Source: an uncultured Gammaproteobacteria bacterium (GTDB lineage: Bacteria; Pseudomonadota; Gammaproteobacteria; JASBUN01). Taken from it: a stretch of DNA of 64,000 nt. Of this stretch, positions 13,022-57,811 are shown one piece after another; the first letter of the stretch is position 1, and every line of letters begins with the position of its first letter. The notes below the pieces were generated by a model. That model did no database searches and had not been told where the DNA came from. It saw only the letters and a program-made list of their open reading frames with translations. The position numbers were made by a program, and so were the translations under genes. Where the stretch lies: positions 570,900 through 634,899 of the forward strand of contig CAVXJN010000001.1 in NCBI GenBank assembly GCA_963762165.1, given 5' to 3'.

Positions 13022-14122
13022 ATGAATTCTTCAGGTAGCCAAAAGGTGGTCACCAATTACGGACTCATGACTGCGTTTTTACAACGCATGATTGCTGCAG
13101 GCATCCGCGCCCCATCTGGAGACAATTGCCAGCCGTGGTGGTTTGAGGCGAGCGCAGGGAATACACTTAGCATCCACGTCGATCTACCGCAGGCCGAAAG
13201 CTTTTTCGATTTCAAGCACCGCGGGTCCCTGCTATCAGTCGGAGCAGTAATCGAGAACATGCGCCTCCAGGCAGCCATGGAGGGTTTTGACTGCACGTTA
13301 TCGTACCCCGGGAACACCGGGGAAACCGGTCCCGCAGCTCAGGTAGCATTCCGACCCACATCCGCCAAAGGGTCTCAGGCTACGCTGCAAGCCGCAATGT
13401 GGCAACGTACCGTCAACCGACGGCCGTTCCTACCAGCACGGATCATGCGCAGTAAACTTCAGGCGTTGACTGAGAACCCTGTCGCAGGCGTGCGCGTCAG
13501 ATTTTTCCAGCGTCGCAGTGAAATCAAACAATGGGCGCGGCTGATCTATGCAGCGGATCGAATACGATATTCTCACCCAGTTATTCATGAGCAGGTATTT
13601 TCGAAAATTCTTTTGTCCAAGAATGAAGCACTAACCAAACGTGTCGGACTGGAAATCGATCGTCTCGGCGCAGGACCCATCGCCAAACCACTCATGCGCT
13701 TGATACGTCCTTGGGACCGAATGCATCGGCTCCGATATATTGCCGCGGACCGATTACTCGCCCGTCAAGCACAGATGCTGGCCCTGGCCAGCGGTGCGCT
13801 GTGCGTCGTTTCGATCGAGACCAATGACAACGACGCTTGGATTCGCGCGGGCGAACAAGTCGAACGCTTATGGATCAAAGCACAGTCATTAGGACTATGT
13901 GTACATCCTATAACCGTGGCTCTTTTCCTTGACATGCGCTACCGCGAAACCGGCACAGACGGATTTCGGGCCGATCACCAAAAGTTCTTGGAAGAGATCC
14001 GCGCGGGCATCGACCGCTTGATCCCAGACGGCCAATGCGCCATGTTGTTTCGGCTTGGAGTTGGCCCAATGATGGCACATCCGGCCGTTCGCAAATCCCC
14101 GGAAACGTTTCTTCGGCAATAA
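13022..14122 (+). CDS. Nitroreductase-superfamily flavoprotein, two-lobed/tandem type (366 aa)
   Basis: N-terminal nitroreductase motif RAPSGDNCQPWWFE; length consistent with tandem-lobed nitroreductase/SagB-like dehydrogenases. Confidence 0.55.
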   Translation: MNSSGSQKVVTNYGLMTAFLQRMIAAGIRAPSGDNCQPWWFEASAGNTLSIHVDLPQAESFFDFKHRGSLLSVGAVIENMRLQAAMEGFDCTLSYPGNTGETGPAAQVAFRPTSAKGSQATLQAAMWQRTVNRRPFLPARIMRSKLQALTENPVAGVRVRFFQRRSEIKQWARLIYAADRIRYSHPVIHEQVFSKILLSKNEALTKRVGLEIDRLGAGPIAKPLMRLIRPWDRMHRLRYIAADRLLARQAQMLALASGALCVVSIETNDNDAWIRAGEQVERLWIKAQSLGLCVHPITVALFLDMRYRETGTDGFRADHQKFLEEIRAGIDRLIPDGQCAMLFRLGVGPMMAHPAVRKSPETFLRQ

Positions 14123-14188
14123 AACGCAGCGTCTGCGCATAATAGCTGTCATATTCAAACGAAACGCGTGCCCCACGGAGAGTGTAAT

Positions 14189-15220
14189 ATGGACAAAGAA
14201 CTGAAATTCGACGACTTAGCCCTGATTGCCGCGGGCCATACCGCGTTCCAACTATTGTGGTCCGGTCTGCAACTCGGGTTGTTTGATTTCCTGTCCGCGA
14301 ATCCCGGTGCATCACGTGACCAGATCATGAAACACGCGGACCTCCAGGAGCAACCTGCCCGAATTCTCTTGATCGGTCTAACGACACTGAAGCTGATAAA
14401 AAAGGAAGGGGATGGTTATCGGAACGCCGACGTGGTAGCGCAAGTTCTGGTATCCAATAGCCCAGCGTACATGGGCGACGTGTTGGGATGGCAATACCAT
14501 ATTGTCTATCCGGGCGAGATGGACCTTCTTCGCGCGTTGCAGGAAAATACGAATGTGGGGCTGGGGCGATTCACCGGCACGGAAAACAACCTCTATGATC
14601 GCCTCTCGCACACCCCCGAACTGGAGAAGATTTTCCATGACGCGATGAGTTCGTTATCGAAGTCGGCCAATGTGCTTCTGGCCGAAGAGGTCCCCCTCAC
14701 GAGCATCTCTCATCTGGTCGACGCAGGCGGAGGCGATGGTACGAACGCTATCACCCTCGCTAAAGCCAACCCGCATCTCAAGGTCACCGTATTTGACTCG
14801 CCCACGGTCTGCGCCTTGGCTGAGCAGAACATACGCGAGGCAGGCATGGGGGACCGTGTAGACACCTTTCACGGCAACCTTTTTAACACCGACCTCCCCA
14901 CTGGTATCGACGCCATCTTGCTGGCGCACATGATGACCATCTGGTCTCCGGAGCACGACACGACTGTGCTGAAAAAGGCTTATGACGCGCTTCCCGCCGG
15001 AGGTCGGGTGATCGTGTTCAATATGATGGGGAACGACGATGAAGACGGGCCAATCACGGCAGCGTTGGGATCGCCCTATTTCCTGTCGATCGCCACCGGC
15101 GAAGGCATGCTATACACCTGGAAAGATTATGAATCATTTATGGACCGCGCCGGCTTTAAAAAGATCGAACGCATTTCACTGCCAAGAGATCACGGCGTGC
15201 TAATCGGCATCAAGCAATGA
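14189..15220 (+). CDS. Class I SAM-dependent O-methyltransferase (COMT-like, dimerisation domain plus Methyltransf_2)
   Basis: SAM motif LVDAGGGDGTNAITLAKANPHLKVTVFD; ATG at 14189 preceded by GGAGAG; the ORF tool's 14168 start is GTG. Confidence 0.7.
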   Translation: MDKELKFDDLALIAAGHTAFQLLWSGLQLGLFDFLSANPGASRDQIMKHADLQEQPARILLIGLTTLKLIKKEGDGYRNADVVAQVLVSNSPAYMGDVLGWQYHIVYPGEMDLLRALQENTNVGLGRFTGTENNLYDRLSHTPELEKIFHDAMSSLSKSANVLLAEEVPLTSISHLVDAGGGDGTNAITLAKANPHLKVTVFDSPTVCALAEQNIREAGMGDRVDTFHGNLFNTDLPTGIDAILLAHMMTIWSPEHDTTVLKKAYDALPAGGRVIVFNMMGNDDEDGPITAALGSPYFLSIATGEGMLYTWKDYESFMDRAGFKKIERISLPRDHGVLIGIKQ

Positions 15221-16152
15221 CGCAACCGGAAGCCGATAAGAAGCCGCGCAATCCACAAGGTCAAGTCGACGCGCAATTCGACTATCACGCTGCTTTCAGT
15301 CGCAACCTTGGGCTGGTGCAACCCGAAGAGCAGGACACGCTTCGCCGCAGCAAGATCGCGATCGCGGGCCTGGGAGGCGTTGGAGGGGTACATGTGCACA
15401 CCCTTGCACGGCTGGGCATCGGACGATTCCATCTCGCCGATTTCGACTCGTTCGAGTTGCCAAACTTCAATCGCCAAGCGGGCGCAACTGTGTCAAATCT
15501 GGGCAAGAGCAAATGCAGCGTGATGGCTGCTACTTTGACGGACATAAATCCAACGTCTGAAATTACGAGGTTCGAAGACGGGATCCATGCCGGCAACGTA
15601 GATCGGTTTCTTGAAGATGTCGATGTCGTTGTGGACGGCCTCGATTTTTTCGCCGTTGAGGCCCGCGATTTGCTCTATACCCGCGCTCGCGAGGCTGGCC
15701 TTCCCGTCGTCGGCGCAGGCCCCATCGGTTTCAGCGCGATTCTGCTTGTTTTCACACCCGATGGAATGGGCTGGCACGAATATTTCGCGATGGACCTCGC
15801 CAAAAATACGGTGGACAAGTACGTGCTGTTCGGCTTGGGTAATGCGCCGAAGGCTACCCATCTATCCTACATGGATAGGCGCTATGTCAGCCTGGATAAG
15901 AAAATCGGCCCTTCCTGCGCCGCCGCCGTGCAATTATGCGGCGGCTGGATCGGGGCCGAAGTGGTTAAACTGTTGTTGGGCAGGGGGCCTGTATTGGCTG
16001 CGCCCTATTACCACCAATTCGACGCATACAAATGCAAATATGTGCGCGGAAAGTTGAGATGGGGGAATAAAGGACCGTTACAGAGGCTGAAGTTCCTGAT
16101 CTTCAAAAAGATCTATCTCTCGAAATCGCAGAACGCCCGTCAACCGATCTAG
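15217..16152 (+). CDS. ThiF/MoeB/HesA-family E1-like adenylyltransferase (no C-terminal CxxC or rhodanese)
   Basis: Rossmann motif IAIAGLGGVGGVHVHTLARLGIGRFHLADFD...NFNRQ; start overlaps the stop of the methyltransferase (ATGA), suggesting translational coupling. Confidence 0.7.
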   Translation: MTQPEADKKPRNPQGQVDAQFDYHAAFSRNLGLVQPEEQDTLRRSKIAIAGLGGVGGVHVHTLARLGIGRFHLADFDSFELPNFNRQAGATVSNLGKSKCSVMAATLTDINPTSEITRFEDGIHAGNVDRFLEDVDVVVDGLDFFAVEARDLLYTRAREAGLPVVGAGPIGFSAILLVFTPDGMGWHEYFAMDLAKNTVDKYVLFGLGNAPKATHLSYMDRRYVSLDKKIGPSCAAAVQLCGGWIGAEVVKLLLGRGPVLAAPYYHQFDAYKCKYVRGKLRWGNKGPLQRLKFLIFKKIYLSKSQNARQPI

Positions 16153-16234
16153 CGACACCCGTAAGCCGCTTATTCGCTCACGCGCCGACCCGATCTCAGC
16201 AAAACCTGTTTGCCGCTGCATCGGCATAAAAAAA

Positions 16235-16263
16235 CCGCACAGCCAAATCGGCTGTGCGGTTTC
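16235..16263. terminator. Bidirectional rho-independent terminator between convergent genes
   Basis: A-run, then CCGCACAGCC-AAATC-GGCTGTGCGG hairpin (10-bp stem), then TTTC; lies between the ThiF gene and the PEP-CTERM gene. Confidence 0.7.
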
Positions 16264-16283
16264 AGGCAAAAGCCGCGCTGCGC

Positions 16284-17300
16284 TTAGCTACGCGAGGCTT
16301 TCTTCCGACGGCGGGCGGCGCCCGCAAAGCCGGACACAGCAAGCCCGGTTCCCAGCAGGGCCAGTACGCCAGGCTCCGGAACTGCAGTCACATTGACGCT
16401 GGTCAGTGCCGCCAAGGTTAACGTCCAGTTCCCCGCCGTCAGTCCGCTCACATTGAGGCCGAACGTGGAGGCGCCGGTACCAAGGCTGTGGCTCTGACTA
16501 CTGTTGTCGGGGCCGACACCCAGGGTAAGGTTCAAGTCTTCGCTATCTGCGGTCTCGGTACACGCAAGGCCGCCAGAGGCGTCACAATTGTTTGCTGCGG
16601 TACCTTGCGGCGACCAGCTCACTTCCCCGCTGCCACCGGATAGCTGCTGCAGACCGAACGACGCTGTCATGTTAGACTGGGCCAAACCGAGTCCCGTCAA
16701 CTGGTTCACCAGCGCCTGCATTTCCGGATTGGCGCTGAAGTCGAGAATCAAGGTCGCGGGTGAGACCAACCCATTAGCGAGGGTAAACGACAGCGTGAAG
16801 GTAGTGTTGGATTGAATGTTCGTCGATGCCTGCCCTTGGCCGGTGTTCGCAACCTCCGACTCCGCGACCTGCTTGGTCGAAGTCGGTGTTCCCGTCACCA
16901 ACTCGGAAGTGGAGATTTCCGCGTTGGAGTTCGAGTAGGTGCCGGAACCGGGCCCAAACAGGCTGTAGTTGCTGTCCGCACGAGTGATCGAGCTGCTCGG
17001 CGCATTCGCGGCAGGCACGGTCAACACCGGCGATGTAGCGCTACACGGGGTGCCAAAGCTACCACAACCCGCAGCATTCGCATCGGTAGCGCCATTCAGC
17101 GTCGCCGAATCTTCGACGTTGAAGGTGTACCGGGGGCTAACCCCAGTGATCGGGTCATTGTTGGCATCGAACAGTTGGATGCTCAGGCTATTGATATCGA
17201 GAGACGAACCCGCGTATACGTTCGCGCTGGCTTCGCCTACTGCTCCCATCCCGATCGCAGCCGAGACAGCAGCTACCAAAGTTGCTTTTTTCATGTTCAT
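16284..17300 (-). CDS. PEP-CTERM sorting-domain secreted protein (exosortase substrate)
   Basis: N-terminal signal peptide; Ser/Thr/Gly/Asn-rich body; C-terminus VPEPGVLALLGTGLAVSGFAGAARRRKKASRS (VPEP, TM helix, basic tail); RBS AAGGAG upstream. Confidence 0.9.
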   Translation of the reverse strand: MNMKKATLVAAVSAAIGMGAVGEASANVYAGSSLDINSLSIQLFDANNDPITGVSPRYTFNVEDSATLNGATDANAAGCGSFGTPCSATSPVLTVPAANAPSSSITRADSNYSLFGPGSGTYSNSNAEISTSELVTGTPTSTKQVAESEVANTGQGQASTNIQSNTTFTLSFTLANGLVSPATLILDFSANPEMQALVNQLTGLGLAQSNMTASFGLQQLSGGSGEVSWSPQGTAANNCDASGGLACTETADSEDLNLTLGVGPDNSSQSHSLGTGASTFGLNVSGLTAGNWTLTLAALTSVNVTAVPEPGVLALLGTGLAVSGFAGAARRRKKASRS

Positions 17301-17410
17301 CGCTCGTGTTCTCCTTATGTTCGAGCAGTTCCAAGATACTTAAACGTGTGTAAATTTTTTGGGGCTCTTCGTCCTTGCCCCGGCCGTATCGGCTCGCGTC
17401 GTCCTCATGA

Positions 17411-17428
17411 ATGCAAACAGCGGGCCAA
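17411..17428 (-). promoter_or_regulatory. Sigma-54 (RpoN) -24/-12 promoter for the PEP-CTERM gene
   Basis: Minus-strand TTGGCCCGCTGTTTGCAT matches TGGCACG-N4-TTGCW at GG, GC and spacing; about 110 nt upstream of the start codon; the sigma-54 activator PrsR is encoded in this window. Confidence 0.7.
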
Positions 17429-17443
17429 GATTTCGAATACACT

Positions 17444-17462
17444 GTAAATCAGTGGCTTACAA
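17444..17462 (-). promoter_or_regulatory. Inverted repeat TGTAA-N9-TTACA upstream of the sigma-54 promoter (candidate enhancer/PrsR site)
   Basis: Minus-strand TGTAAGCCACTGATTTACA, with further TTACA half-sites nearby (cattTTACAggcc, gatTTACAgtg), 20-60 nt upstream of the -24 element. Confidence 0.35.
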
Positions 17463-17867
17463 TCGCTCACCCGTGCCGGTCGGTGTCCGCGCGGCGCGGC
17501 CTGTAAAATGCGCTGACAGCGTGGCGCAGCGGCAGCGCGGCACTTTACGGAACGCGGCCGCGCCGCCGCCGCTAGTGGCTCGAAGCGGCGCTAGCGGGCT
17601 GTACCGTCGAGTCCTTTTACAGTGCCTACACGCCGCGATATCGGCCCAGGCCCCGCGCGCGACAGCGCATCGGGACTCGGCCACGTTCGCCGCTACCGAT
17701 TGGAGGCGGTTCGCGCCCCGGATTTGTCGAACTTATTGAAGAATTTAACGGAACCACGCCGCGTTGGGAGTATCTTTCTCTGCGAAAGTGCAGCAAAATC
17801 GAACCATTGCGCATCGGACGCCGCCCACACGAGCCCACGACACGGTTCCCTCGCACCTAGACAACCC

Positions 17868-19090
17868 ATGCGCGTTCTAGCACTCCCTTATACGCAGATG
17901 CTTTCCCATGTCAGCCGACCGCTGCTGGTCGCCCAGGAACTGAGAAACCGCGGCTGGGAGGTCATCTTTCGCGGGCGAAGGCCGGTACGCCGATTTCATT
18001 GCTCAAGCCGGATTCCCAGTTTTGCCGCTGGCGGAACCGGACCCCAGAAAACTCTTGGAAAACATCCGTAAGGGCAAAATGAGGTTCGTCACCGACGACG
18101 ATTTCCGGGACTGATAGAGGCGGATATGCTTTTATACCGGCAAGTGAAGCCAGATCTGGTACTCTCCGACTTCCGTTTTTCTGCGCCCATCTCAGCCCAG
18201 GTGGCAGGCATCCCGCACGCAGCCATCGTGAATGCTTCTTCGACGCAATATCGCGCCCTGCCCTATGTGCCGGTGTTCGGCAGGTTGCAGCGCGGCTGAC
18301 CGAACCCGCGCCAACGCTGAGCGCTGTGCTCAACCGCTTCAATGTCGGCCTAGAGATCCGCATTTTTAATCGAGCGATGAGCATTTTTACCCGGCTCAGT
18401 AGAAAATATGGTCTCCAAAAGACCGTTACTGCCACCAACTGCTTAGCCGGCGCCGATCTGACATTGATCGCCGACATTCCCGAATATTTTCCGACCCGAC
18501 GATTGCCCCCCGACTACCATTTCGTCGGTCCCCTGGCGCTTAAAAGCGACGCACCGGCTTCATCCTGGTGGCCGCCGAAAAGAACCGGGCGACCGCTGGT
18601 CTACTTCACGATGGGCACAACGGGATTGGGAGCGTTTTTCCAGTCAGCGCAGAAACTCTTGGCCGATTCTGACATCAGCGCCGTAATCACCACCGGCCAG
18701 CAGGCTGAGGGTATTCATTCTATCGATGACAGGATCTATGTCGAACCATTCATAAACGGCGACCTGGTGATGGAGGTATGTGATCTCGTCGTGTGCCACG
18801 GAGGCAACGGCACCGTTTACCAAGCCCTGCAGTACGGCAAACCGATTATCGGAATTCCCACGCTAGCGGATCAGCAATTCAACATGCGCATGGTGGAACG
18901 CTTGGGCGCCGGGCGGATGATGTCCTGGCACCGATTCCATCGTTACCCCAATTCACTAATGGATCTGATCCATGAGACTATGGAAGATTCATCGATACTG
19001 CACAATGCCGCTCGGCTGCGAGACTCTCTCGCCGAATATCATGCGGCCGATAACGCTGCAGACCTTATGACACAGCACTTTTCGCCACGC
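17868..19090 (+). pseudogene. GT1-family (UDP-glycosyltransferase/MGT-like) glycosyltransferase, disrupted by at least two frameshifts
   Basis: N-terminus MRVLALPYTQMLSHVSRPLLVAQELRNRGWEV in one frame, middle ...DLVLSDFRFSAPISAQVAGIPHAAIVNA in a second, C-terminal GT1 motif HGGNGTVYQALQYGKPIIGIPTLADQQFN in a third (ORF 18326..19171). Confidence 0.65.
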
Positions 19091-19122
19091 CGCGCGAGAT
19101 CGGCTGACGGCGCTACACCTGC

Positions 19123-20397
19123 GTGCCAAGCGCTGCTTCGGCGATCGGTGGACATAGCGAGGACGTGCTAGTGATTCATCCGCCCGAACAGCGAGCTTTC
19201 GTCAAAATCTGGAACGGCGCCGCGCGCCGCCTCGCCGTACCCGTACTACGCCCGTCACTCATGCTTGCCGACGTTGTCGATACGGCGCGGAAGAGGACCA
19301 GATATGACGGCTCCAACGGACTCAACATACTTGAGCCGCTGGAGATCCTCCTGACTTCTCTGCGTGATTCGGGCGATTTGCACGCGTTCGGACAATTCTA
19401 CGTTAGAGCCGTGATCACGAACTTGCTGGAAAACCGACTGAAATTATTTAACTTCTGGCAACAACGCCCTGATATTCTAAGGCAGCGGTTAGAACGGCCG
19501 GTGTTCATACTGGGACTTCCCCGTACCGGCACATCGCTTCTGTTCGACCTACTTTCGCGCGATCCCTGTCATCGATTTTTATCCAACTGGGAAACTACTG
19601 TTTCCCAAATAGACCCAATCGCGAGGCAGCCGGGAGGAAGATCCCGGCGCAGAATCGGTAAACGCCTCGTGCGTTTGCAGGACTATCTGGCGCCAGACTT
19701 AAAGAGCATTCACCGCTTTCACCTCGATGGTCCTGAGGAATGCACGCCTCTGCTGATGCAAAGCCTCAGTACCCAGGCACTTGCCGGAATGTTCAATGCC
19801 CCCGCTTATTCAGCGTGGCTCGACTCGGCACCCCATCTGGAGACATATCGCCATCACAGGCGGACACTTCAAACATTGCAGTGGACGTATCCTGCGCAGC
19901 GCTGGCTACTCAAGTCGCCTGACCATACGGCTGCAGTTAACGCCATTCTGGAAGTCTATCCAGACGCTTGCTTGATCCAATTGCACCGCGACCCGGCCAA
20001 ATCCGTTTCCTCCTGGGCCGATTTAAATGCCGTATTTCGCGAATCTATAGCCGTGTCGTGGACCGTCAATTGTTGGGACAGCAAGTACTGGAAAGGCTGA
20101 CACCGACATGGCCAGCTGTCTACGGCAGCGACAAACGTTCTCCCCGGCCAGATACTGGATTTGCAATACAATGACCTCATATCCGACCCCATCGGCACGG
20201 TGCGGCGGATTTACGTGCATTTTGACCTGCAATTATCCGCCGGTACTTTAACGGCTATCCAAACCTTGCTAGAGAGTCCTCGTCGTTCTAAAAGTGCGCA
20301 CCGTTATCGTCCCGAAGACTTTGGCTTGACCACTGGCGAGATCCACGAATACTTCGCAACTTATATGCAGCTTTTCTCTATTCCGACCGAAGACTAA
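19123..20397 (+). pseudogene. Sulfotransferase-family protein (PAPS-dependent), disrupted by two frameshifts near 20030 and 20140
   Basis: 5'-PSB motif ILGLPRTGTSLLFDLLSRDP; C-terminal conserved ...LDLQYNDLISDPIGTVRRIYVHF...HRYRPEDFGL only in other frames (ORFs 19968..20174 and 20161..20397). Confidence 0.6.
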
Positions 20398-20478
20398 TTA
20401 ATTCCGCAGCCGCGCCAATCATCGCGGACTCACTCATCGCAACGGTTCGCGGGCAAGAACAGTGCATACGCTCAAGGA

Positions 20479-21057
20479 ATGCAAAGGATGAGACTAAGCA
20501 CCATCACTGCTATCGGATCCAGCATATCAGTGGCGGCAACCAGTCTGGCTGCCCTTGGGCATGCCAGTAAGCTTTTGCTATTTTCCTTCGCGGGCATTGC
20601 TGCGGTATGTATTACGTCACTCTTGGCATGGAGTTACGTCTTTATCGCCAACGCCGAGTCCAAAATTCCCTCGAGGTGCCGGTATTGCCTCCGGCTTCAC
20701 ATCGCGTTGCATCTCGTACCCGCAGGCTTCTTGGCTATGAAACTGATTTACCGCGCCCCCGAGCGCTGGGACGCTTGGTACCTCCTTTTAGTGATAGCAT
20801 TTTTCTGGACCGGAAGGGAAACCTGGCGAACGATGTATCAGTACACCAGGTCCATACAATATTTGCTATTTTTTCGTGGCAATACGGGGCTGTTGATCAT
20901 GGCTCCTATAATGCTGACGCTAGGTCATCTATTTCCGCACACTTTTTTCGTCCACGCATTCGAGCGTTTGCTGCTGGTGTACTTCGCCATTCACCTGATA
21001 CTGACCGGTCCTGCCATAATTAAACTGGAGAAGGATATCGAGGTACGAACTTCGTAA
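20479..21057 (+). CDS. Hypothetical integral membrane protein (no recognised family)
   Basis: 192-aa ORF with 5-6 predicted TM segments, in a lower-GC patch; weak RBS; no homolog recalled. Confidence 0.35.
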   Translation: MQRMRLSTITAIGSSISVAATSLAALGHASKLLLFSFAGIAAVCITSLLAWSYVFIANAESKIPSRCRYCLRLHIALHLVPAGFLAMKLIYRAPERWDAWYLLLVIAFFWTGRETWRTMYQYTRSIQYLLFFRGNTGLLIMAPIMLTLGHLFPHTFFVHAFERLLLVYFAIHLILTGPAIIKLEKDIEVRTS

Positions 21058-21128: not shown

Positions 21129-23911
21129 CTATCCATAGACCGCTTCAAGTCTTTCGCGGCCAATTCCACTCTGGATCGAGCGTCTCGTTAGTAACGGATC
21201 GACGATACGTCGTGCGTCGCGTTTCGCGTCGTCTTTCAGTAGCGCACGTGCCAAGTCAAGCTGAATTCGCGCATCGTTCGGTACAATTTTAGCAGCCTGT
21301 TGCAGTGTAGAAAGCGCCAGCTTGGTTTGACCGTTTCTTAGCAGCAACATGCCCATTGTGTCGAGCACCTGCGGGTCGTTAGGCGCCAGTTGTTGAGCGC
21401 GCTCAGCAACCGAAAGTGCGCGCGGGAGATTCTGATCCCGCAGTAGCCAGGCGACATTGTTCAACGCCCGAATATTGGATGGCGAGTGCTCCAAGACTTG
21501 CTCGTAAGTTTTCAAGGCATCGCTTGATTGATCGTTCGATAGGTACGCGCCGGCGAGTTGCATCGAAACCGGTGTATCGCGCGGGTGCTTGTCGACCCAA
21601 GTGCGCATGACCTGGACGGCACGATTGCGCTTATGCTGCGCCCAAAGTGCCCGCGACCAGAGCAATGTCAGCTCTGATCCGGCTTCTTTGCTGTCGCCTG
21701 CTCTAACTTCTGGGCAGCTGCGGCGTAATCACCAGTGAGTAACGCATACCATCCTTCTAGGCCCAACACCTCGACGCGGTCACCGAATTCCGCCCGTAGT
21801 TGCTTGATCTGGATATCCGCATCGTGGATGCGACGCTCCTGTACCATCAGCTTGATCTTACCGATTCGCGCCGGCAAATACTTGGGATCAAGCGAAGTCG
21901 CTTTATCGACCGCCTCGCGTGCGGCCTCCAATTCACCGTTACGTGCCAACGCCTCCCCATACATAAAATTGGCCTCTGGCGACTTGGGAGCAATTTCTTT
22001 CCATTTCTTAAACGATCCCTTGGCACCCAACACGTCGCCAGTCATCAGCTCCGTCCTACCCTTAATGTCGAGCAACCGGGGACACTGGTTAAGTTGACTG
22101 GGCCCAATGTCGCGCGTCAGCTTCATACGTCGTCGAACCGGTCTTGCTCGAACAACCGCTTGGCCAGTGCGAAGCGAATCTCCACCGATTGGGGATTTCT
22201 GCTCAGCGCATTAGAAAGGAGGTCAGTTGCTTTTTGTGGCTGCCCTTGGCCGTCAGTAATTTCGCCAGCAAGAGAGCCGCATCCTGATCTTGGACCTTCT
22301 TCTTGAGGTATCCCGTCAATAAAGATTCTGCTTTATCGAGGTGCCCCTGCTGACGCTCCGGCTTCGCGAGGTTTTTCACTGCAGTAGGGTCAGTCGAGTC
22401 CAACTCCAGGACTTCGTTTAGATATTTTCGCGCCTCGCTCCAATCCGCTGTAGCGAGATAACACCCGGCGAGCAGGTTCAAAGGATCTATCCGCTCCGGA
22501 AACTGCTCGTGTAGCTTTTTCGCCCTGGTCACGGCCAGCTCGAAGTTGCGCGCCTTAAACGCCTCGATCGCATACAATAACTTTCGCACGTATTCCTGCT
22601 GCGCGCTCGCATTACCCGTAGCACCCGCGTCCACTGCGTTGTCGAGCTGCTGATTATTCAGGAGCTTTGCCACCATCAAAGTATAGTTCTCACCGGGTGA
22701 ACCTGAATGCGGGTCCTCGATTTGCTTGGCATATTCCATAGCGCGCTTTGGGTCACCTTCGAGCCATGAAAGCGTTGCTGACAGCCGGAGTATCTCCGCG
22801 TCGTTTGCGTGCCGAGCACGCGCCTGCTGCAGAATCTGGTCCGCCTCTTCCAATTTTGATTGCCGCAGATACACGGCAGCGAGAATGCGTTGGGGGCCGA
22901 CCGCGTACGGCGCTTGTGATGAGGCTTTCTGCGCGAACTGGAGGGCTTGCTCTAAGTTACCCAAAATCAAGTTGGTCGCGGCCAAATACATGGTGGCTTG
23001 ATAAAAATCGGGCACGCGATTGATTGCTGACTGAAATTCCGCCTCGGCCTGGCGATACTTCCGCTGCTTGAAGTAATTGATGCCCGCCACGTAATTGACG
23101 TACGGATGTTTCCGCAGGCCGTATTTCTTTAATGTACGCAGATCTTCGTCCGCTTCGTCGTACTTTCCCTGCTGAGCACGCGCCAAGGCGCGCTTGGCTA
23201 CGTCCGTATTGACATAATGACGGAGGGCAATCGCTTTACTGAACGCCTTTTCCGCCTCATCGGCTTTACCTTCGCTCAGGGCCATCTCCCCAAGCAAGCT
23301 CCAGCTGGCTGCGACATCAGGGTGTTGCTTTTGAACATTCTTCAGTTGCTCTCGCGCCCCAGTCAAGTCACCTTGACGCCACGCTAGCTGCGCGATACCC
23401 ACCTGCGCCTCCGGATAGTCATTGACGACACCCAGCGCATGTCGGTACGATTCGTCGGCATCACGAACGCGGCCCGACCCTAAATAGGCGTGGCCGCGCA
23501 ATGTCCAGTACTCCGCCTGCACGGGCGCCGGCGAGTCTGCCGCGGGCGGCTTCTGGCGCAAATTTCGTCGATCTGAGCTTCCAAAAACTCCGCTCTCATC
23601 AGCGGTACCACGACGGCATCCTCGCTTACACCGAGATTCATGGCGCGCCGCAGTTCTTTTTCTGCGCTTGCGCCATCTCCCAACTCGATGTAGGTGCGAC
23701 CCAATAACCAGCGAGCTTCAGGATTATCTGGATTGACCTGGAGCGCGTTCTTAAGGTCGATGGCCGCGGCTTGGTAATTCCCGCCGTCCCGCGCGTCTTT
23801 TGCGCGCTGTCCGTGCTAGAAATAGGTAAAATTGGTGTCTGAACTGCACCCCGAAATCGCTGTCAGAATCGCGATCGAGAGGCCCGAAAAGATAACTTTC
23901 AACGTCTGCAT
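21129..23911 (-). pseudogene. Second PrsT-like PEP-CTERM system TPR-repeat lipoprotein, degraded (nonsense codon plus several frameshifts)
   Basis: Starts MQTLKVIFSGLSIAILTAISGCSSD (lipobox); in-frame TAG at 23816-23818 after 31 codons; continues colinear with PrsT through ORFs 23480..23704, 22203..23561, 21668..22126 and 21129..21665; total span about 858 codons. Confidence 0.7.
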
Positions 23912-23971: not shown

Positions 23972-26836
23972 CTAACCCCTAGTCTTGAGTTCTCGCAGAA
24001 GCGCCTTCGCGTCCTCGGCTTCGGGAAAACCGGGGTTTGATTTCAACAGTCTCTGCAACTCTTTGCGCGCTTCGATGGCGTTTCCCGCCGCATTCAACGC
24101 CACCGCGTAATGGTATTGTATGCTGCCGATATGCGGAGCCCTCGCGACTGCCATGCGAAGCATTTTCAGACCTCCTTCGACATTTCCGGTCTGTAGCAGC
24201 ATCCAACCATAGGTGTCGATGATTTCCGGCTGATCCTGTTTGAGTTCATAGGCTTTTTTTGCGAGACTTAATGCGTTGCTTTGCTCATTCTGGTCAAGAT
24301 ACAGCCATGCCAGATTATTTAATATAATCGCGTTATTAGGCTGTAGTTTATTGGCCGCTGCGTATTGGTCGATCGCCTCCTCGCGGTGTCCGGTCGACTG
24401 TAGCTGAGAAGCCAACACCATACGTGCACGAACGTCCCTCGGATTCTGTTCAATCCAGGCGAGCAGTCCTTGTACGGCTTGAGTTCCGCGGCCCAAATTT
24501 TGCCTCATCTTAAAGAGCGCGATCGCTCTGTCACTCGTCGACTGGATCGCTTGCGCTTTCTCGAATGCGCGCTCTGCGGATTCATACTCGCGCTTCTGGA
24601 ATTCGGCCTTTCCCTCTAACTCAAACCCGACTCCTGACTTCGGATAATGTGTTTGGATCGTGCGCGCAGTCGCGATAACTTGCTCGTAATCGTCACGTGC
24701 AGCCTCGAGTTTGGCCCGCAACAACAGAGAGGGAAGATGATTCGGCGTTAAGTTCAATGCTTCCTGTAATTCCTTTTCGGCAGTGGCGCTGTCGCCGGAG
24801 ATCGCACGCGCATTTGCAAGCAGGTAGTGTGATTCACTTGACTTTGGCTCCACATTCACCAATCGCTCGAACGTCACCAAAGCGCTCGCTTTTTCACCGA
24901 CTGCAAGTTGTGCCCGCCCTAAGGTACGCAAAGCGCTAGGATGTCGAGGAAACTTATCGGCCAGTTGACGAGCGGTGCTCAACGCTTGCAGTGGGGTATT
25001 CTGGGACAGTTCCAAACGCGTCAACAATACCAGTGGCTCGAGAGCATCGGGATTTGCATCGCGCGCCTGCTGAAGGCGTTGTCGAACTACATCAGGCTTT
25101 CCCTCACCTTCAGCCAGGCGCGCGAGCTCCAACAGTATCTGCAAATTGCCGTGGTCGTAGTTCAATACCTCCGTGAGTCGTTTAATGGCGGAGTCACGGC
25201 GCCCTTCTCGCTCGTCCAATCGAGCTAGATTCAATCGCGCCGGTGTGAATTTGGGATCAATCTCCAGAGCCCTGTGCAAATACTTCCGTGCTTCCTTGGG
25301 CACTCCTTTGCTAAGATAGGCAGCCCCGATTACGTTATACGGCAGAGGGTTGTCCGGATGCCGCTTTGCCATGGCCTGTGCCGCTTTCAGCGCTTCTTCG
25401 TACTGCCCTTGGCGCAAGTGGACCATGACCAACAAAAGATCCGCCTGAATCAGATCAGGATCCAACTGTACAGCCGCCTCAAGCTCGGACACCGCACGCC
25501 CGGTATCTCCGCTACCCAGTTGACTGATGCCAAGCTGGGTCCTGATAGCAGCCTCATTGGGTGCCAGGTCCGCGGCGCGATTCAGGTACTCGCTTCCCTT
25601 TGTAAAGTCGCCGCTCTTCATGTACGCAGTACCCAGCAATGCAAAAAACTGGGGATCGTCCCCGACCGTCGGGATACGGGGCTCGAGCATCTGCAATGCG
25701 CCTTTAGGATCTCCCCGCTTGAGTCGCACGACCGCCAACAGTTTTACCGCACGCAGGTCGGAAGGTTGCATCGAGACGAATTTCTTCAAAAAACTTTCCG
25801 CTGTTTCCAGTTGCCCTTTCCGATAGTTCAGAACCCCGAGCAGCAGATTGGCTGGGGCGTAATCCGGGGCGCTACGCAGGATTTCGGTGAGCTGATTTTC
25901 AGCATCATCATTCTGATCCCGCCCCAACGCGATCAATGCGCGCATATACCGGGCAAGTACCAACCGGTTGGAGATCTGTCCGAGCGCATTGAGATCCTGT
26001 TCCGCCTCGTCGTACTTTCTCACCCCCAGATGCGCCGCCGCTTGCGCAATACGCAGACTGATGTGGTGCGGATTAAGTTGTACACCTTTGTCGTAAGCCG
26101 CCAAGGCATCCGTGAATTTGCCCTGATGCTGGAGCATGCGGCCTTTGAAAAGGTAGGCCTCAAGATAGTTTGGGTCGGCCGCAATCGCTTGCTCTGCGAG
26201 GGACGCGGCCCGCGCCTCATCGCCGTCCTGACGCGCGAATTGCGCCTCCAACAACAAGACTTTTGCGCTTTTGGGGGCCAGTTGACGCGCTAGTTCGAAT
26301 TCTTCGTGAGCCAGTTTTGGATTCCGATTAATCAATGCAGCATCGGCTCGCATGGCATGGATCTCGACTTGAAGCTCCTTGGAATCTCCTTTTTCCACCT
26401 GCAGGTCCTTGAGCACCTCGCCGGCTTTGTTTTGCCACAAGTCGCGCCTGGGCCAAGCGGAATCAGCCACTTGTCTCGAGGTGCACCCAGTGTCGCGGGC
26501 GCGCTGCAATTCCTTTTCAGCCGAAATCACATCACCGGCCCGCAAATAGGTGTTGCCCAGAAGAAGGCGCGCCTCCGCATCCTTCGGATCATTCTGAAGC
26601 GCGTTTTTGAGTTCGATCACAGCAGTGCGCAAGCGGTCGTTGCTGGAGCGCGTCCTTTGCGGACTGCAGATGGTCTCTGGGCTGCGAACGACGGCGCAGC
26701 CGCCGCACAGCGCAACCATCGCGGCTGCCATTAAGAGCGCCGCTTTCGGCAACATCGTGTGTTTGATCGGCTTTCCCATCGATTCCCTCCCGCAAGAACT
26801 TGCGTATCGCATACCTTTACGGCCCGCGATTGGCAT
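23972..26836 (-). CDS. prsT: PEP-CTERM system TPR-repeat lipoprotein PrsT
   Basis: 954-aa all-TPR protein with signal peptide (LLMAAAMVALCGGC) immediately downstream of prsK-prsR; start codon uncertain (possibly the internal Met at about 26755). Confidence 0.8.
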   Translation of the reverse strand: MPIAGRKGMRYASSCGRESMGKPIKHTMLPKAALLMAAAMVALCGGCAVVRSPETICSPQRTRSSNDRLRTAVIELKNALQNDPKDAEARLLLGNTYLRAGDVISAEKELQRARDTGCTSRQVADSAWPRRDLWQNKAGEVLKDLQVEKGDSKELQVEIHAMRADAALINRNPKLAHEEFELARQLAPKSAKVLLLEAQFARQDGDEARAASLAEQAIAADPNYLEAYLFKGRMLQHQGKFTDALAAYDKGVQLNPHHISLRIAQAAAHLGVRKYDEAEQDLNALGQISNRLVLARYMRALIALGRDQNDDAENQLTEILRSAPDYAPANLLLGVLNYRKGQLETAESFLKKFVSMQPSDLRAVKLLAVVRLKRGDPKGALQMLEPRIPTVGDDPQFFALLGTAYMKSGDFTKGSEYLNRAADLAPNEAAIRTQLGISQLGSGDTGRAVSELEAAVQLDPDLIQADLLLVMVHLRQGQYEEALKAAQAMAKRHPDNPLPYNVIGAAYLSKGVPKEARKYLHRALEIDPKFTPARLNLARLDEREGRRDSAIKRLTEVLNYDHGNLQILLELARLAEGEGKPDVVRQRLQQARDANPDALEPLVLLTRLELSQNTPLQALSTARQLADKFPRHPSALRTLGRAQLAVGEKASALVTFERLVNVEPKSSESHYLLANARAISGDSATAEKELQEALNLTPNHLPSLLLRAKLEAARDDYEQVIATARTIQTHYPKSGVGFELEGKAEFQKREYESAERAFEKAQAIQSTSDRAIALFKMRQNLGRGTQAVQGLLAWIEQNPRDVRARMVLASQLQSTGHREEAIDQYAAANKLQPNNAIILNNLAWLYLDQNEQSNALSLAKKAYELKQDQPEIIDTYGWMLLQTGNVEGGLKMLRMAVARAPHIGSIQYHYAVALNAAGNAIEARKELQRLLKSNPGFPEAEDAKALLRELKTRG

Positions 26837-26922: not shown

Positions 26923-28275
26923 TCAAGAGCGCATATTGAATTTATCCAGTAACGTATACAGCGTCGGACGCGTGATCCCCAACAATTCGGCCGCACGCGA
27001 CAGATTCCCATCCGCGACGGACAATGCACGCGAGAGTGCGTGCCGTTCGGCCTGCTCCCGTACCTGGCGAAGGTTGAACGGCATGCTTTCGTCCTGCGCC
27101 TCAGCCAGTTCCAGGTCTTCTGCCGTAACCTGTGTCCCCTCGGCCATGATCACCGAACGCTTCACCCGATTTTCCATCTCTCGGACATTGCCCGGCCACT
27201 GATAGTGCTCGATCGCGGCCAATGCTTCTTTGCTGAAGCTGCGCACGGAGCGGCTGTTCTTGTCGGCATAGCGCTTCAGAAAGGTACTCGCCAACACTAC
27301 CGCGTCGCCTTGACGGTCCCGCAGCGGAGGCACAATGAGCTTGATTTCGCTGATTCGGTAGTAGAGATCTTCTCGGAACGTGCCTTCCTGAATCAATTGC
27401 GTCAGGTCACGGTGCGTGGCGCAAACCACCCGTACATCCACGGCGATCTCGGCTCTGCCGCCCACTCGCTCGATCACGCGCTCCTGTAAAAAGCGCAACA
27501 ATTTGGCCTGCAGCGCCAACGGCAGATCGCCCACTTCGTCGAGAAACAGCGTGCCGCCGTCAGCGTATTCGATTTTACCTTTGGTCTGCTTGGCCGCGCC
27601 GGTGAAAGCGCCCTTCTCATAACCGAAAAGCTCGCTTTCCAGAAGGTTTTCAGGGATCGCGGCGCAATTGATGGCGACGAAACTGCCCTGGGCGCGGCTG
27701 CTCAGATTATGGATCGCTCTCGCCACCAGTTCTTTGCCGGTACCGCTCTCCCCCAAGATGATCGTCGTCGCGTCCGTGGGCGCCACTTTTTCCACGGTCC
27801 GACATACTTTGAGCATTTCCGGGCTGGTGGCGATGATCCCCTCCAGAGGCGAATCGCCTTTTGCGCTGGCGAGGCGGCGGTTCTCGTCTTCCAATTCATA
27901 CACGCGGTAGGCGCGCTCGATGATCAACCCCAGGATTTCCGGTTCGATGGGTTTCTGGTAGAAGTCGTACGCTCCAAGGGCGATGGAACGCACGGCGTTT
28001 TCCCGATCTTCATTGCCCGTCACGACAATGATCTTGGTGTGCGGCGCAAGTCGCAAAATCTCCTCCAGCGTCGCAAGTCCCTCGCTGGCATTTGCCGGAT
28101 CCGGAGGCAGCCCGAGATCCAAAGTCACCACGGCCGGCTCGTGCCGGCGCAGTTCGTTAATAGCCGTCTCCTTGTCCCCCGCGATCAGCACATCGTAGTG
28201 CTCAAACGACCAGCGGAGCTGGCTTTGCAATCCGGGATCGTCCTCAATTACCAGTAGTGTTTTATTGGCTGTCAA
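26923..28275 (-). CDS. prsR: PEP-CTERM-box response regulator PrsR (NtrC-family sigma-54 activator)
   Basis: Receiver domain (DDPGL...TLDLGLPP), AAA+ sigma-54 interaction domain (GESGTGKE, GAFTGA), C-terminal Fis-type HTH; start overlaps prsK stop (ATGA). Confidence 0.85.
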   Translation of the reverse strand: MTANKTLLVIEDDPGLQSQLRWSFEHYDVLIAGDKETAINELRRHEPAVVTLDLGLPPDPANASEGLATLEEILRLAPHTKIIVVTGNEDRENAVRSIALGAYDFYQKPIEPEILGLIIERAYRVYELEDENRRLASAKGDSPLEGIIATSPEMLKVCRTVEKVAPTDATTIILGESGTGKELVARAIHNLSSRAQGSFVAINCAAIPENLLESELFGYEKGAFTGAAKQTKGKIEYADGGTLFLDEVGDLPLALQAKLLRFLQERVIERVGGRAEIAVDVRVVCATHRDLTQLIQEGTFREDLYYRISEIKLIVPPLRDRQGDAVVLASTFLKRYADKNSRSVRSFSKEALAAIEHYQWPGNVREMENRVKRSVIMAEGTQVTAEDLELAEAQDESMPFNLRQVREQAERHALSRALSVADGNLSRAAELLGITRPTLYTLLDKFNMRS

Positions 28276-30390
28276 TTCGCAGTCTCTGCAGCGCGTTGAA
28301 CGTCGTGTCCGGGCGCGTCTCGGTACAGCGGCAACCGGACCTGAAATTTGCTTCCGTTCCCGGGCTCGCTGGTGACCAGCAGGTCGCCGCCCTGCGACCA
28401 GATGAATTCTCTGCTTTCGTAGACGCCGATCCCCATTCCCGCGTTGCCCTTGGTGGTTTCAAATGGCCGGAATAAGCGTTCGCGAATAAACTTTTCGTCC
28501 ATGCCGCAGCCATCGTCCGTAACCTCGATGAGAACGTCATCGTGATCGACCCCGGCCTTTACCAGCACCCGGCCCTGCCGAGACGTGGCTTCCTGCGCGT
28601 TTTGGATCAGATGCGACAATACGTTGGTCAGTTTTTCGGCGTCTATCACCAGTAGCAATTGACGGTCTTCGGATTCCAGCGACGGTACAGGATCCTGACC
28701 GGCACAAGTCGATACGGCATCGCGCAAGATTGGCTGCAAATCGACGATCGATTTAGCAGCCTCTACTGTACCACCCTTGCGCAACTGTGCCAGCATCCTG
28801 TTCATCTTCGCAGTCGCGTTTTCGACCGTACTGATTGCGTCCGCCACGAAAGCGGGGTTATCGAGATGACGCTTCGCATTTTTTACTACCAACGACAGCT
28901 GCGCGCTGACATTCTTCAAATCGTGCACCACATATGATGAAAGTCGATTGAACGCTTCGAATTGACGGGCGTTCATCAATGCTTCGCTGGTCTCCACCAA
29001 CGCGATGTAACTGGCAATCTGCAGTCCGACCGTCTTCAGCAAGTCACGATCTTCCCAGTTAATATTACGCAGTGCGCGTGGCCTTCCCAATACCACGAAA
29101 GCGATAAGTGTCTCGTCGCGCAGCAACGGGACCACGAGCCAAGCCCGCGGCAACTCTTCGAGCCAATCCGGTAGCATCAGATCTTCATATAACTCTGGAT
29201 TCTCCCTGAATTCGTCCAGATCGATGACCCACTTCCGGGTGCGCAGAAAACGAATCACAGGCGCGTCTTCCTTGATCACTGCATGCGCCGTCTCGTTCAT
29301 GTTCCAATGCTCAGCCCCCGCATAGTGCCCGGCGTCGGTCTGAGTCCAGAGCATGCCGCCGGTACTTTCGACGATATCCGCCAGCGATCGAATCGCCCGT
29401 TGCCGCGGGTTCAGTTCGCCGTCTCCGGCCAGCAGACTTCCCGACAACTTCAACCATTCTTCTCGGTAATCGTACTTGTAATTGAAAAAATGCTTACTGA
29501 GAAATACCTTGAGTTTGGCTCGCATCTGCCCGGAAAACAGCAACACACCCAACAGCAGCAGCGCGAATGCCAAGAACGTCGCCTGTGCAGCGGTGCCCCA
29601 ACTACCTCCGAATTGGCGTATGTAATAGCCGGCCGCGGCCATGACCAGCAGGTAAAGTCCCTGCCCCGGCGAGCGTGACGGTATGGAACACCACCCGTCT
29701 GGAGATGAATACATCCAGGGACCAGGCCGGGTTGCGTGCCGCCGAAACCGCCAGCATCGGAACAACCAAAGCGTTGACGAACCCACGCGCTGTCCACAAA
29801 TCGTAATCGATCTGCTTGAACAGCAACGCATCCGAATACAGAAAAAAATCGTAGGCGAAAATGGCGCCTACGCCCAAAAATAGATACTTCACCGACCAGC
29901 GCCCCGACGGGCGGGTATTGCGAAATAATTGCTCCACCAAGGCCATGCCGATCAAAGCCAACAGCAAGTGGCCGGTCATTGCCGCCTGTGTCGGCGATGC
30001 CGAGTGTATTACCTTCGTGACCAGTTGCGGCACCAAGTCGATCAGCAGGACCACCGCCGCGGTGACTAGCGCGACAGGCTCAGCAAACGTCAACAACCCC
30101 GTATGCTCGCGCTCCGAGACCTTCAATGGTCGCAGCAGTCGAAACAGGAACACGTACCAGGTGATGTCGCGCAGGATTTCCAGCGTGTGATAGGCGATCG
30201 GAGAAACCGGTGCCTGAATCTGTGGCCCGAGTGCTGCCACCACCCCCCACACCGTACTGGTGGTCACGGCGGCGACCAGCGCCGCGCCTTCAAGGCGGCC
30301 CCGCCAACTCGTCAGCAGCAACAAAGCAAGCAGTAGAAATGCGCCCGCTGCGACGAGGTAGCTCACCAGGCCGATGTCAACCGCTTGCAT
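28272..30390 (-). CDS. prsK: PEP-CTERM system histidine kinase PrsK, with a +/-1 frameshift at a C4/G4 run near 29665
   Basis: Polytopic N-terminal domain (ORF 29602..30390) and HisKA/HATPase C-terminal part (ORF 28272..29831; HDLKN, DDGCGMD, GMGIGV) overlap in different frames; joined they give about 706 aa, the expected PrsK size. Confidence 0.7.
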
Positions 30391-51221: not shown

Positions 51222-53381
<2,160 letters not shown>

Positions 53382-53524: not shown

Positions 53525-53611
53525 GCCGGGGTGGCGGAATTGGTAGACGCGGCGGACTCAAAATCCGCTGGGGGTGACCCCTTGAGAGTTCGAGTCTCTC
53601 CCTCGGCACCA
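53525..53611 (+). tRNA. tRNA-Leu (anticodon CAA), type II with long variable arm, encoded CCA
   Basis: 7-bp acceptor stem GCCGGGG/CTCGGC, D-loop GGAATTGGTAGA, anticodon loop CT-CAA-AA, long variable arm, T-loop GGTTCGAGTCT motif, terminal CCA. Confidence 0.85.
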
Positions 53612-53735
53612 CCTTTGCACGGCAGCCTCGCGCCCAAGTCCGGGTAGCGGCCTGTCCGTGAAGCAACCACACTAATCAGAACCACGGCCGCGGCTCGAAT
53701 TTTCCCGCGCATCACACCGAACCCAGAAGCGAACC

Positions 53736-56301: not shown

Positions 56302-57811
56302 TCAGGCTGCGGGTTCTTCCAGACGACCGTAGGCCGCCAGCATGTCGCGCAACCGCTGCGCCAGTTGTTCGTCGACCATGCTCCACTCAAAACGCCATCC
56401 CCAGTTGCCTTCGGTGACTCCGGGCACATTCATTCGATGGCGATCGTCTAGCGCCAGAAGATCCTGCATCGGCAACACGCACATCTCGGAGACCGAAGCG
56501 AGCGCTGCGCGAATCAGCGGCCACGGCTGGGGCTCCTGCGGGTAGCCCAGGTATTCGCGCACCCGTTCCTGCTGGTCGTCGCTGAGCGAGTCGAACCAGC
56601 CCACGGTGGTATTATTGTCGTGGGTGCCGGTGTAGACGACATAATCGCGTTCGTGGTTATGGGGCAGATACGGATTTTCCGGGCCGCCATCGAACGCGAA
56701 CTGCAGAATCTTCATTCCGGGCAGGCCGAAGCGATGGCGTAAGGCATCGACCTCCGGCGTAATCAGGCCCAGATCCTCCGCCACCAGCGGTAACGGATCG
56801 AAGCGGCTGCGAAAGTGTTCGAACAACTCCTCGCCGGGGGCCTCCACCCAGCGGCCGTCCACAGCGGTTTCCGCCTCTGCAGGAATTTCCCAGAAAGCCT
56901 GGAATCCGCGGAAATGATCGATGCGTACCAGATCGAACAAATCGAATTGATGTCCGACTCGACGCAGCCACCAATCGTAGCCGCTTTCACGCATGTGGTC
57001 CCAGCGATAGAGCGGATTGCCCCAGCGCTGGCCGGTCGCTGAAAAATAATCCGGCGGCACCCCCGCCACGGTCAGGGCGCGGCCCTGGTCGTCCAAGGTG
57101 AAATACTCGCGCCGTGCCCAAACCTCCGCGCTATCGTGGGCGACGAATATGGGCAGGTCGCCGAACAGCAATACGCCTCGTTGATTGGCGTAGGACTTGA
57201 GCGCCCGCCATTGACGATCGAACACGAACTGCTCGAAGCACACGCGCTCGCGTTCCTCGGCCAGTTCCGCTTTGGCATTCTCGAGCGCTTCCGGCACCCG
57301 ATCGCGTACCGGCGCAGGCCAATCAAGCCAGGAACGGCCGCTGTGCTTGCGGCGCAGTGCCTGATACAGACAATAGTCGTCCAGCCAGTATTGCTGGCGC
57401 TCACGAAACGACCGGTAGTCCGCCTTCTGTGCCTGGTCGGCATGTTCCGCGAAACCTTGCACGGGCGCGCTGCAACAACTGCTCCCGCCAGGCGGCGGCG
57501 TCGGCACCCGGTTCACCCAGGTCACCGAGCCAGCCTTCAGCCTGCAACTGTTCGGCGCTCAATCAGGCGGGACTGCCGGCGAATACCGACAAACACGGCA
57601 TAAGGTGAACCGTCGGAATGGGTCGGACCAAGGGGCAACATCTGCCAGACGGTCGCACCCGTGGAGACCAAAAAGATCGACGAAATTGCGACCTTCCTCG
57701 CCTAGCGCCCCACCGGACGCATCGCACGGCAGCGACGTCGGATGCAACAGGACGCCGGCGCGGCGCCTGCTGAATGGCGACTCTTCGGCGATTGCTTTCC
57801 GGTCGCTCATG
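56302..57811 (-). pseudogene. malQ: 4-alpha-glucanotransferase MalQ (GH77), with several frame disruptions in the N-terminal 120 codons
   Basis: Intact C-terminal 407 aa (ORF 56302..57525) with GH77 motifs; N-terminus MSDRKAIAEESPFSRRRAGVLLHPTSLP... (ORF 57559..57849); the intervening conserved segments (GSPY..., FAGSPA-stop-LSAEQLQAEGWL) appear in all three frames, including an in-frame TGA. Confidence 0.65.

Follow-up and report, generated by a model that had tools for sequence, protein, structure and literature searches.

The window analysed here is a 64-kb stretch (64,000 nucleotides) of contig CAVXJN010000001.1 from an uncultured gammaproteobacterium. Judged by its relatives alone, the source, with 58% G+C, would be Ectothiorhodospiraceae-like. 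The window contains a single PEP-CTERM gene, which lies at 16284..17300 on the (-) strand and encodes a 338-residue protein of the EDSAP-1 family. The protein matches NCBIfam model NF041538 with 253 bits, compared with a cutoff of 100 bits; residues 307-333 match the PEP-CTERM domain model TIGR02595, and the C-terminal end reads VPEPGVLALLGTGLAVSGFAGAARRRKK. We collected 67 homologs of this protein, and its start codon is consistent with those of the orthologs. A literature search on 'EDSAP-1' found no papers. The gene is preceded by a 570-nt intergenic region that holds a sigma-54-type (RpoN) promoter element, two copies of a 17-nt motif known as motif 1 of the PEP-CTERM box, and, between promoter and motif 1, a block resembling a site for integration host factor (IHF). 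The NtrC-family regulator PrsR, the predicted binder of motif 1, is encoded in the same window.

The sigma-54 -24/-12 element, TGGCCCGCTGTTTGCA, occupies 17412..17427 (-), with its GG at 17426-17425 and its GC at 17414-17413, a separation equal to the canonical 10 nt. An earlier reading of this DNA from its letters alone (the sequence-only reading) had singled out the 18-mer TTGGCCCGCTGTTTGCAT at 17428..17411 (-), which contains the core TGGCCCGCTGTTTGCA (17427..17412), as a near-consensus RpoN site about 110 nt before the PEP-CTERM open reading frame (ORF). This claim holds up well: the string is present on the (-) strand, its GG/GC spacing is right, and the element is conserved in all of the orthologs described below. 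The end of the 18-mer is 110 nt from the ATG at 17300, within non-coding DNA and on the same strand as the gene. Compared with the consensus TGGCACG-N4-TTGCW, TGGCCCGCTGTTTGCA agrees at 11 of 12 positions, the top score on both strands of the 64 kb, with one tie: a site inside glgB at 61459 (+) that has TCGC at -12. When the pattern is relaxed to TGGCMYG-N4-TTGCW, TGGCCCGCTGTTTGCA is the sole match in the window, against 0.10 expected per dinucleotide-shuffled window. A -24/-12 element is likewise present in 18/18 non-redundant orthologous upstream regions, at -97 to -127 from the ATG. We take TGGCCCGCTGTTTGCA to be a true sigma-54-type promoter for the PEP-CTERM gene, kept through evolution, and the usual -12 geometry places the predicted transcription start at ~17401 (+/-2). 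Other sigma-54-like matches, at 61459 (+), 37019 (+), 3473, 3913, 15659 and 53255, fall in coding DNA and were dismissed as chance. Elsewhere in the window, CGGCACCACCTTTGCA at 53604-53619 (+) fits the sigma-54 consensus at 10/12 positions with correct GG/GC spacing and lies ~117 nt upstream of an alpha-glucan phosphorylase gene (53736-56294) on the same strand; it is possibly a second sigma-54 promoter, or a chance match.

Orthologous loci were gathered from a scan of species-representative genomes (a 12-sequence alignment), a metagenome scan and exact homolog look-ups. The resulting set of 18 non-redundant upstream regions covers beta- and gammaproteobacteria at 41-63% protein identity, with Ectothiorhodospira, Sediminicurvatus, Thauera, Azoarcus, a Casimicrobiaceae metagenome-assembled genome and uncultured or metagenomic sources among them, and each region was anchored on its own best -24/-12 match. 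Three blocks are conserved in otherwise unalignable DNA: the -24/-12 element itself, the 17-nt motif 1, and a block YAA-N4-TTGAW located 32 nt 5' of the TGG. Motif 1, with the consensus [T/C]GTC[G/A][G/A]-N5-TTTACA, is present in every one of the 18 orthologs, and in 15 of them the first base of its TTTACA is exactly 80 nt 5' of the TGG. The exceptions are one ortholog with TTTACG at -80/-81 and two with the hexamer at -68 and -67. A composite scan of 181 kb (the window plus the orthologous loci) for motif 1 followed at 40-100 nt by a sigma-54 element returned the pair before every EDSAP-1 gene with enough flanking sequence; the single match elsewhere is weak and lies in a coding region. Within the orthologous loci, an unrelated PEP-CTERM gene of Sediminicurvatus halobius (CP086615.1; locus L015, 543-1334) has its own box at L015 365-460, composed of AGTCTGTCAGCTTTACA, a 63-nt spacer and TGGCATTGGTTTTGCG, with 98 nt to the ATG. 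A tRNA-like sequence (L015 ~233-305) lies just upstream of that box.

In the window, motif 1 is represented by TGTCAGCGCATTTTACA at 17502..17518 (-), a predicted PrsR site called from its ortholog position and its matrix score. Here too the TTTACA (17507..17502) begins at the exact distance of 80 nt from the TGG on the 5' side, leaving a 74-nt spacer, and the sequence contains a partial dyad TGT-N11-ACA centred at ~-109 from the predicted start. No other sequence in the window matches TGTCRR-N5-TTTACA exactly. On a matrix built from the orthologs only, TGTCAGCGCATTTTACA scores 13.5 bits, just above the 99th percentile (13.2) of random N11+TTTACA sequences, which have a mean of -3.1 bits. A second copy, CGTCGAGTCCTTTTACA, lies inverted and further upstream at 17605..17621 (+), with its TTTACA at 17616..17621 and its centre at ~-212. 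With a matrix from which the window was left out, it is the best match on both strands of the window at 20.2 bits, where 20 shuffles peak at 16.9; in the comparison with random N11+TTTACA sequences on the ortholog-only matrix, it scores 17.4 bits. Measured between centres, 103 bp separate the two copies, or about ten turns of the helix. Second motif-1 copies also occur in orthologs at other distances, inverted in the closest ortholog (L014) and direct in L006. The inverted copy might instead serve the glycosyltransferase gene on the other side of the intergenic region through a divergent sigma-54 promoter, but neither the (+) strand of 17520-17880 nor L014 has a GG-N10-GC element scoring above 7/12. 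The simplest reading of CGTCGAGTCCTTTTACA is therefore that it gives the same promoter another activator site, probably bound by PrsR as well. A further TTTACA in the 5' untranslated region (UTR; 17354..17349, -) scores 1.8 bits, is not conserved and was dismissed. The remaining motif-1 matrix matches, at 35173 (-), 57038 (-) and 51900 (+), lie in coding regions and have scores within the shuffle range.

This arrangement has a direct precedent. Haft et al. 2006 (BMC Biol 4:29, PMC1569441) described a motif pair upstream of 99/167 proteobacterial PEP-CTERM genes, consisting of a 17-nt motif 1 that ends in TTTACA and in some cases occurs more than once, a spacer averaging 62.8 +/- 10.6 nt (range 32-92), and a 17-nt sigma-54 motif 2 located 71 +/- 38 nt from the start codon (range 23-221). 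The motif's phylogenetic profile led those authors to the discovery of PrsR, PrsK and PrsT, with PrsR as the predicted binder. The window locus shares the repeated 17-nt motif ending in TTTACA, a spacer that at 74 nt is within their range, a GG/GC sigma-54 element whose 110 nt to the start codon is within theirs too, a gene transcribed alone behind a large non-coding region, a PEP-CTERM gene downstream, and genes for PrsK (frameshifted), PrsR and PrsT. All features of the published box that can be tested in the window are present when the copy at 17518..17502 is taken as motif 1. Differences are also seen: the spacer is at the long end and near-invariant at 74 nt in EDSAP-1 orthologs, whereas it varies in the pooled set of Haft et al., and the second motif-1 copy in the window is inverted. 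The promoter is an ordinary new instance of the module described in 2006. Two promoters of this kind have been studied by experiment: pepA of Aquincola tertiaricarbonis RN12, which depends on RpoN1 and has had its start site mapped (Xia et al. 2023, PMC9850573), and pepA of Zoogloea resiniphila MMB, for which dependence on PrsK, PrsR and RpoN was shown genetically (Gao et al. 2018, as summarised in PMC9012009). Both resemble the window locus in having a -24/-12 promoter, a predicted enhancer upstream and an adjoining prsT, with RpoN dependence established there; they differ in coming from Betaproteobacteria and in encoding another PEP-CTERM protein family.

The third conserved block lies within the spacer. 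In the window it reads TAAGCCACTGATT (17447..17459, -), is centred at ~-52, and is contained in the palindrome TGTAAGCCACTGATTTACA at 17461..17443 (-). It agrees with the IHF consensus YAANNNNTTGATW at 8/9 positions; set against WATCAANNNNTTR, it is the complement strand of the consensus, with the same 8/9 agreement. Across 15 promoters, YAANNNNTTGATW is matched at offset -32 from the TGG with a mean of 6.93/9, compared with 3.02 +/- 0.75 when the consensus is placed at the other offsets or in the other orientation within the spacer, and in 11/15 sequences the -32 block is the top IHF match of the whole spacer. Among the orthologs, L014 carries TAACTAATTGATA (9/9), L023 carries TAAGTCCTTGATT, shifted by one base, and L024 fits too. 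Many sigma-54 promoters, such as nifH, Pu and glnHp2, have IHF sites near -50, between the activator site and the promoter. The general plan of these NtrC/NifA-type promoters is an activator dyad at ~-100 to -200, an IHF site at ~-50 and the -24/-12 element, with TGT-N10-ACA as the NifA site. The window promoter has the same three-part layout, and its TGT-N11-ACA is comparable to the NifA dyad; the activator (PrsR) and the sequence of its site are different, and the part played by IHF is here a prediction from sequence. Since the block is centred at ~-52, the usual place for IHF in sigma-54 promoters, we take the palindrome for an architectural site of the IHF type. It is more likely a bend site than an enhancer: an IHF-like block with flanks that fortuitously complete a 5-bp inverted repeat, including TTTACA, and that would be bound by IHF. 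Haft et al. 2006 (PMC1569441) mention neither IHF nor a conserved IHF-like block in the spacer.

The alternative that survives best is that the -32 block is not an IHF site but is recognised by a different protein (either a second regulator or the polymerase, making an upstream contact), or serves only as a conserved, A+T-rich, bendable spacer. The short and degenerate nature of the IHF consensus and the A+T richness of the orthologous spacers speak for this, as does the fact that strong conservation is limited to YAA and TTGA; the IHF genes of this genome are beyond the content of the window. An A+T-rich stretch or an unrelated site does not readily account for a match to YAANNNNTTGATW that peaks at one offset and in one orientation and is the best of the spacer in most promoters, nor for a position at ~-52 between activator site and promoter, which is typical for IHF in sigma-54 promoters. 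We consider this alternative possible and would not be greatly surprised by it, while holding the IHF assignment to be the better one.

The regulatory genes that the PEP-CTERM box calls for are 7-13 kb from the promoter. prsR (26923..28275, -) encodes an NtrC-family sigma-54 activator, the 'PEP-CTERM-box response regulator', and matches TIGR02915 with 751 bits (cutoff 503); the match spans all 445 positions (1-445) and includes the sigma-54 interaction domain. prsT (23972..26836, -), for the tetratricopeptide repeat lipoprotein of the XrtA/PEP-CTERM system, matches TIGR02917 at full length with 781 bits. The histidine kinase gene prsK (28272..30390, -) is recognised by TIGR02916 and is divided over two overlapping ORFs, with model positions 2-239 in ORF 29602..30390 and 238-679 in ORF 28272..29831; the frameshift is near 29660, with the frame changing near CCGGGGCAGGG. 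If this frameshift is real, the promoter could be a relic, with PrsR never phosphorylated and the PEP-CTERM gene silent. Other broken genes nearby fit such decay: three frames are needed to read the divergent EryCIII-like glycosyltransferase gene at 17869-19171 (+), and three ORFs make up a second prsT paralog (21129-23561, -). The housekeeping genes tgt and malQ (51222-52037, - and 56302-57525, -) also look truncated by frameshifts, each covering its profile only partially. Such a pattern may reflect widespread pseudogenes, but it suggests indel errors in a long-read assembly more than decay aimed at this system. The PEP-CTERM gene, prsR, prsT and all promoter elements are moreover intact, down to the exact 80-nt phasing, and we judge a relic promoter to be unlikely.

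The sequence-only reading had rightly placed PrsR and PrsK in the window (TIGR02915 and TIGR02916 match, prsK being frameshifted), and it had proposed the inverted repeat next to the promoter, with additional TTACA half-sites, as the target of the regulator. TGTAAGCCACTGATTTACA would then be the PrsR enhancer and the PEP-CTERM box proper, acting ~15 nt upstream of the -24 element. The palindrome does hold the TTTACA hexamer that ends motif 1, and motif 1 can repeat, according to Haft et al. 2006 (PMC1569441). Its 5-bp inverted arms, TGTAA-N9-TTACA, occur once in the window against 0.01 expected, for a pattern picked post hoc; an inverted repeat with 5-bp arms within a 60-nt stretch is in itself not unusual. 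TTTACA at -21 is likewise found in one ortholog, L018. Against these points stand the score, the geometry and the conservation. The palindrome's 17-mer ending in TTTACA scores -8.6 bits on the ortholog-only matrix, under the mean of random N11+TTTACA sequences, and its dyad is TGT-N13-ACA, where motif 1 has TGT-N11-ACA. Just 15 nt separate the end of its TTTACA from the TGG, less than the minimum spacer of 32 nt reported for the box and a poor geometry for DNA looping. Finally, the palindrome is missing in 16/18 orthologs, while it is the -80 motif that they conserve as a set. We find it quite improbable that the palindrome is the enhancer. What stands of the earlier proposal is that the promoter belongs to a PrsR-controlled PEP-CTERM box and that the inverted repeat and half-sites are present on the (-) strand. 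The mention of additional TTACA half-sites further upstream does point toward motif 1, although the motif-1 copies at 17518..17502 and 17605..17621 lie outside the interval 17300-17470 to which it referred. The suggestion that this was a new candidate for the PEP-CTERM box falls away, as the same motif pair is already in Haft et al. 2006 (PMC1569441). The TTTACA located 21 nt upstream of the TGG, beside the IHF-like block, is found only in the window (17443-17448) and in L018 (~1880-1900), the sole ortholog with a -80 motif ending in TTTACG; it may be a coincidence or a lineage-specific extra half-site. The weakest alternative, in which a sigma-70 promoter drives the gene and the -24/-12 match arose by chance, can be set aside as highly improbable: a simple scan of 16200-17900 gave zero sigma-70-like promoter sites, and every ortholog keeps the -24/-12 element with its distance to motif 1 fixed.

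Overall, we give a probability of roughly 80% to the reading that this region holds a canonical PEP-CTERM box promoter from which one gene, encoding a PEP-CTERM protein of the EDSAP-1 family, is transcribed as a unit by itself, the enhancer being something other than the palindrome. The elements, their rarity and their positional conservation come from this analysis; the link between the motif pair and the Prs proteins and the genetics of RpoN, PrsK and PrsR come from the literature on other species. In the proposed mechanism, sigma-54 RNA polymerase would form a closed complex on TGGCCCG-N4-TTGCA (17427..17412). PrsK would phosphorylate PrsR, which as an NtrC-type activator would bind motif 1 and oligomerise on TGTCAGCGCATTTTACA (17518..17502, ~-109), and probably also on the inverted copy at 17605..17621 (~-212). 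A bend at the IHF-like TAAGCCACTGATT (17459..17447, ~-52) would bring the activator to the polymerase, ATP hydrolysis would open the promoter, and the transcript would run from ~17401 through a ~100-nt 5' UTR to a hairpin at 16263..16225.

Several points weigh against this interpretation. The locus is known from sequence alone, whereas the Aquincola pepA gene and, as summarised for it, that of Zoogloea were tested experimentally (start site, mutants, floc phenotype). Direct binding of PrsR to motif 1 is unreported in PMC1569441, PMC9850573 and PMC9012009. The distal motif-1 copy (17518..17502) is moderate when taken alone: its score is 11.5 bits with the window's G+C content as background, which is within the shuffle range. 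What speaks for this copy is mainly its exact position. The IHF call relies on a degenerate 9-position consensus, in a stretch that is generally A+T-rich in the orthologs. Neither rpoN, ihfA/ihfB nor an exosortase gene is among the annotated genes of the 64-kb window, and the system may be inactive if the frameshift that splits prsK in this assembly is real.

Compared with the 2006 description, the orthologs add a sharper motif-1 consensus, [T/C]GTC[G/A][G/A]-N5-TTTACA, with a TGT-N11-ACA partial dyad, as well as strict 74-nt phasing in EDSAP-1 orthologs and a positionally fixed, previously unremarked IHF-like block. A broader idea, to which we give somewhat less than even odds, is that the EDSAP-1 PEP-CTERM box is a rigid three-part enhancer, made of the PrsR site, a 74-nt spacer with an IHF-type site at -32 and the sigma-54 element, and held constant across beta- and gammaproteobacteria. 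On this idea, a TTTACA half-site would have been gained at the architectural site in the lineage of the window (and also in L018), which might allow competition or cooperation between PrsR and the bending protein. Beyond annotation the finding carries little weight: a confident label can be put on the locus, that of a PEP-CTERM gene under PrsR/sigma-54 control, and its promoter, activator sites and probable bend have exact coordinates. These provide clean targets for work on PrsR-DNA binding, and the subject bears on floc and biofilm formation in wastewater bacteria (Thauera, Zoogloea).

The remainder of the transcription unit is simple. The predicted 5' UTR spans ~100 nt (17301..17401, -) and includes a putative ribosome-binding site, AAGGAG, at 17316..17311 (-). 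It has no Rfam match, and in the orthologs nothing is conserved past the promoter and the ribosome-binding site, outside a Thauera subgroup; a conserved RNA element in the UTR was dismissed on both counts. Right after the gene, at 16225..16263 (-), lies an intrinsic terminator with a 14-bp G+C-rich hairpin followed by T7 (minimum free energy -26.4 kcal/mol), which makes the PEP-CTERM gene a single-gene transcription unit. Sub-threshold Rfam matches to small RNAs (sraL, sX6, P17) at 16225-16263 are accounted for by the terminator hairpin. When the intergenic region was analysed for repeats, nothing beyond G+C-rich low-complexity pairs came up.

The genes around the EDSAP-1 gene (window 13022-21057) recur with it in distant genomes (loci L014-L024), with the same partners in different orders. 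In the window these partners are a nitroreductase-like protein (13022-14122), an O-methyltransferase (14168-15220), a ThiF-like E1 enzyme (15217-16152), a sulfotransferase-like protein (19123-20100) and a small membrane protein of ~190 aa (20479-21057), and the recurrent neighbourhood also holds the EryCIII-like glycosyltransferase and PrsT. The recurrence of these partners in distant genomes suggests a dedicated modification pathway for the EDSAP-1 protein family.

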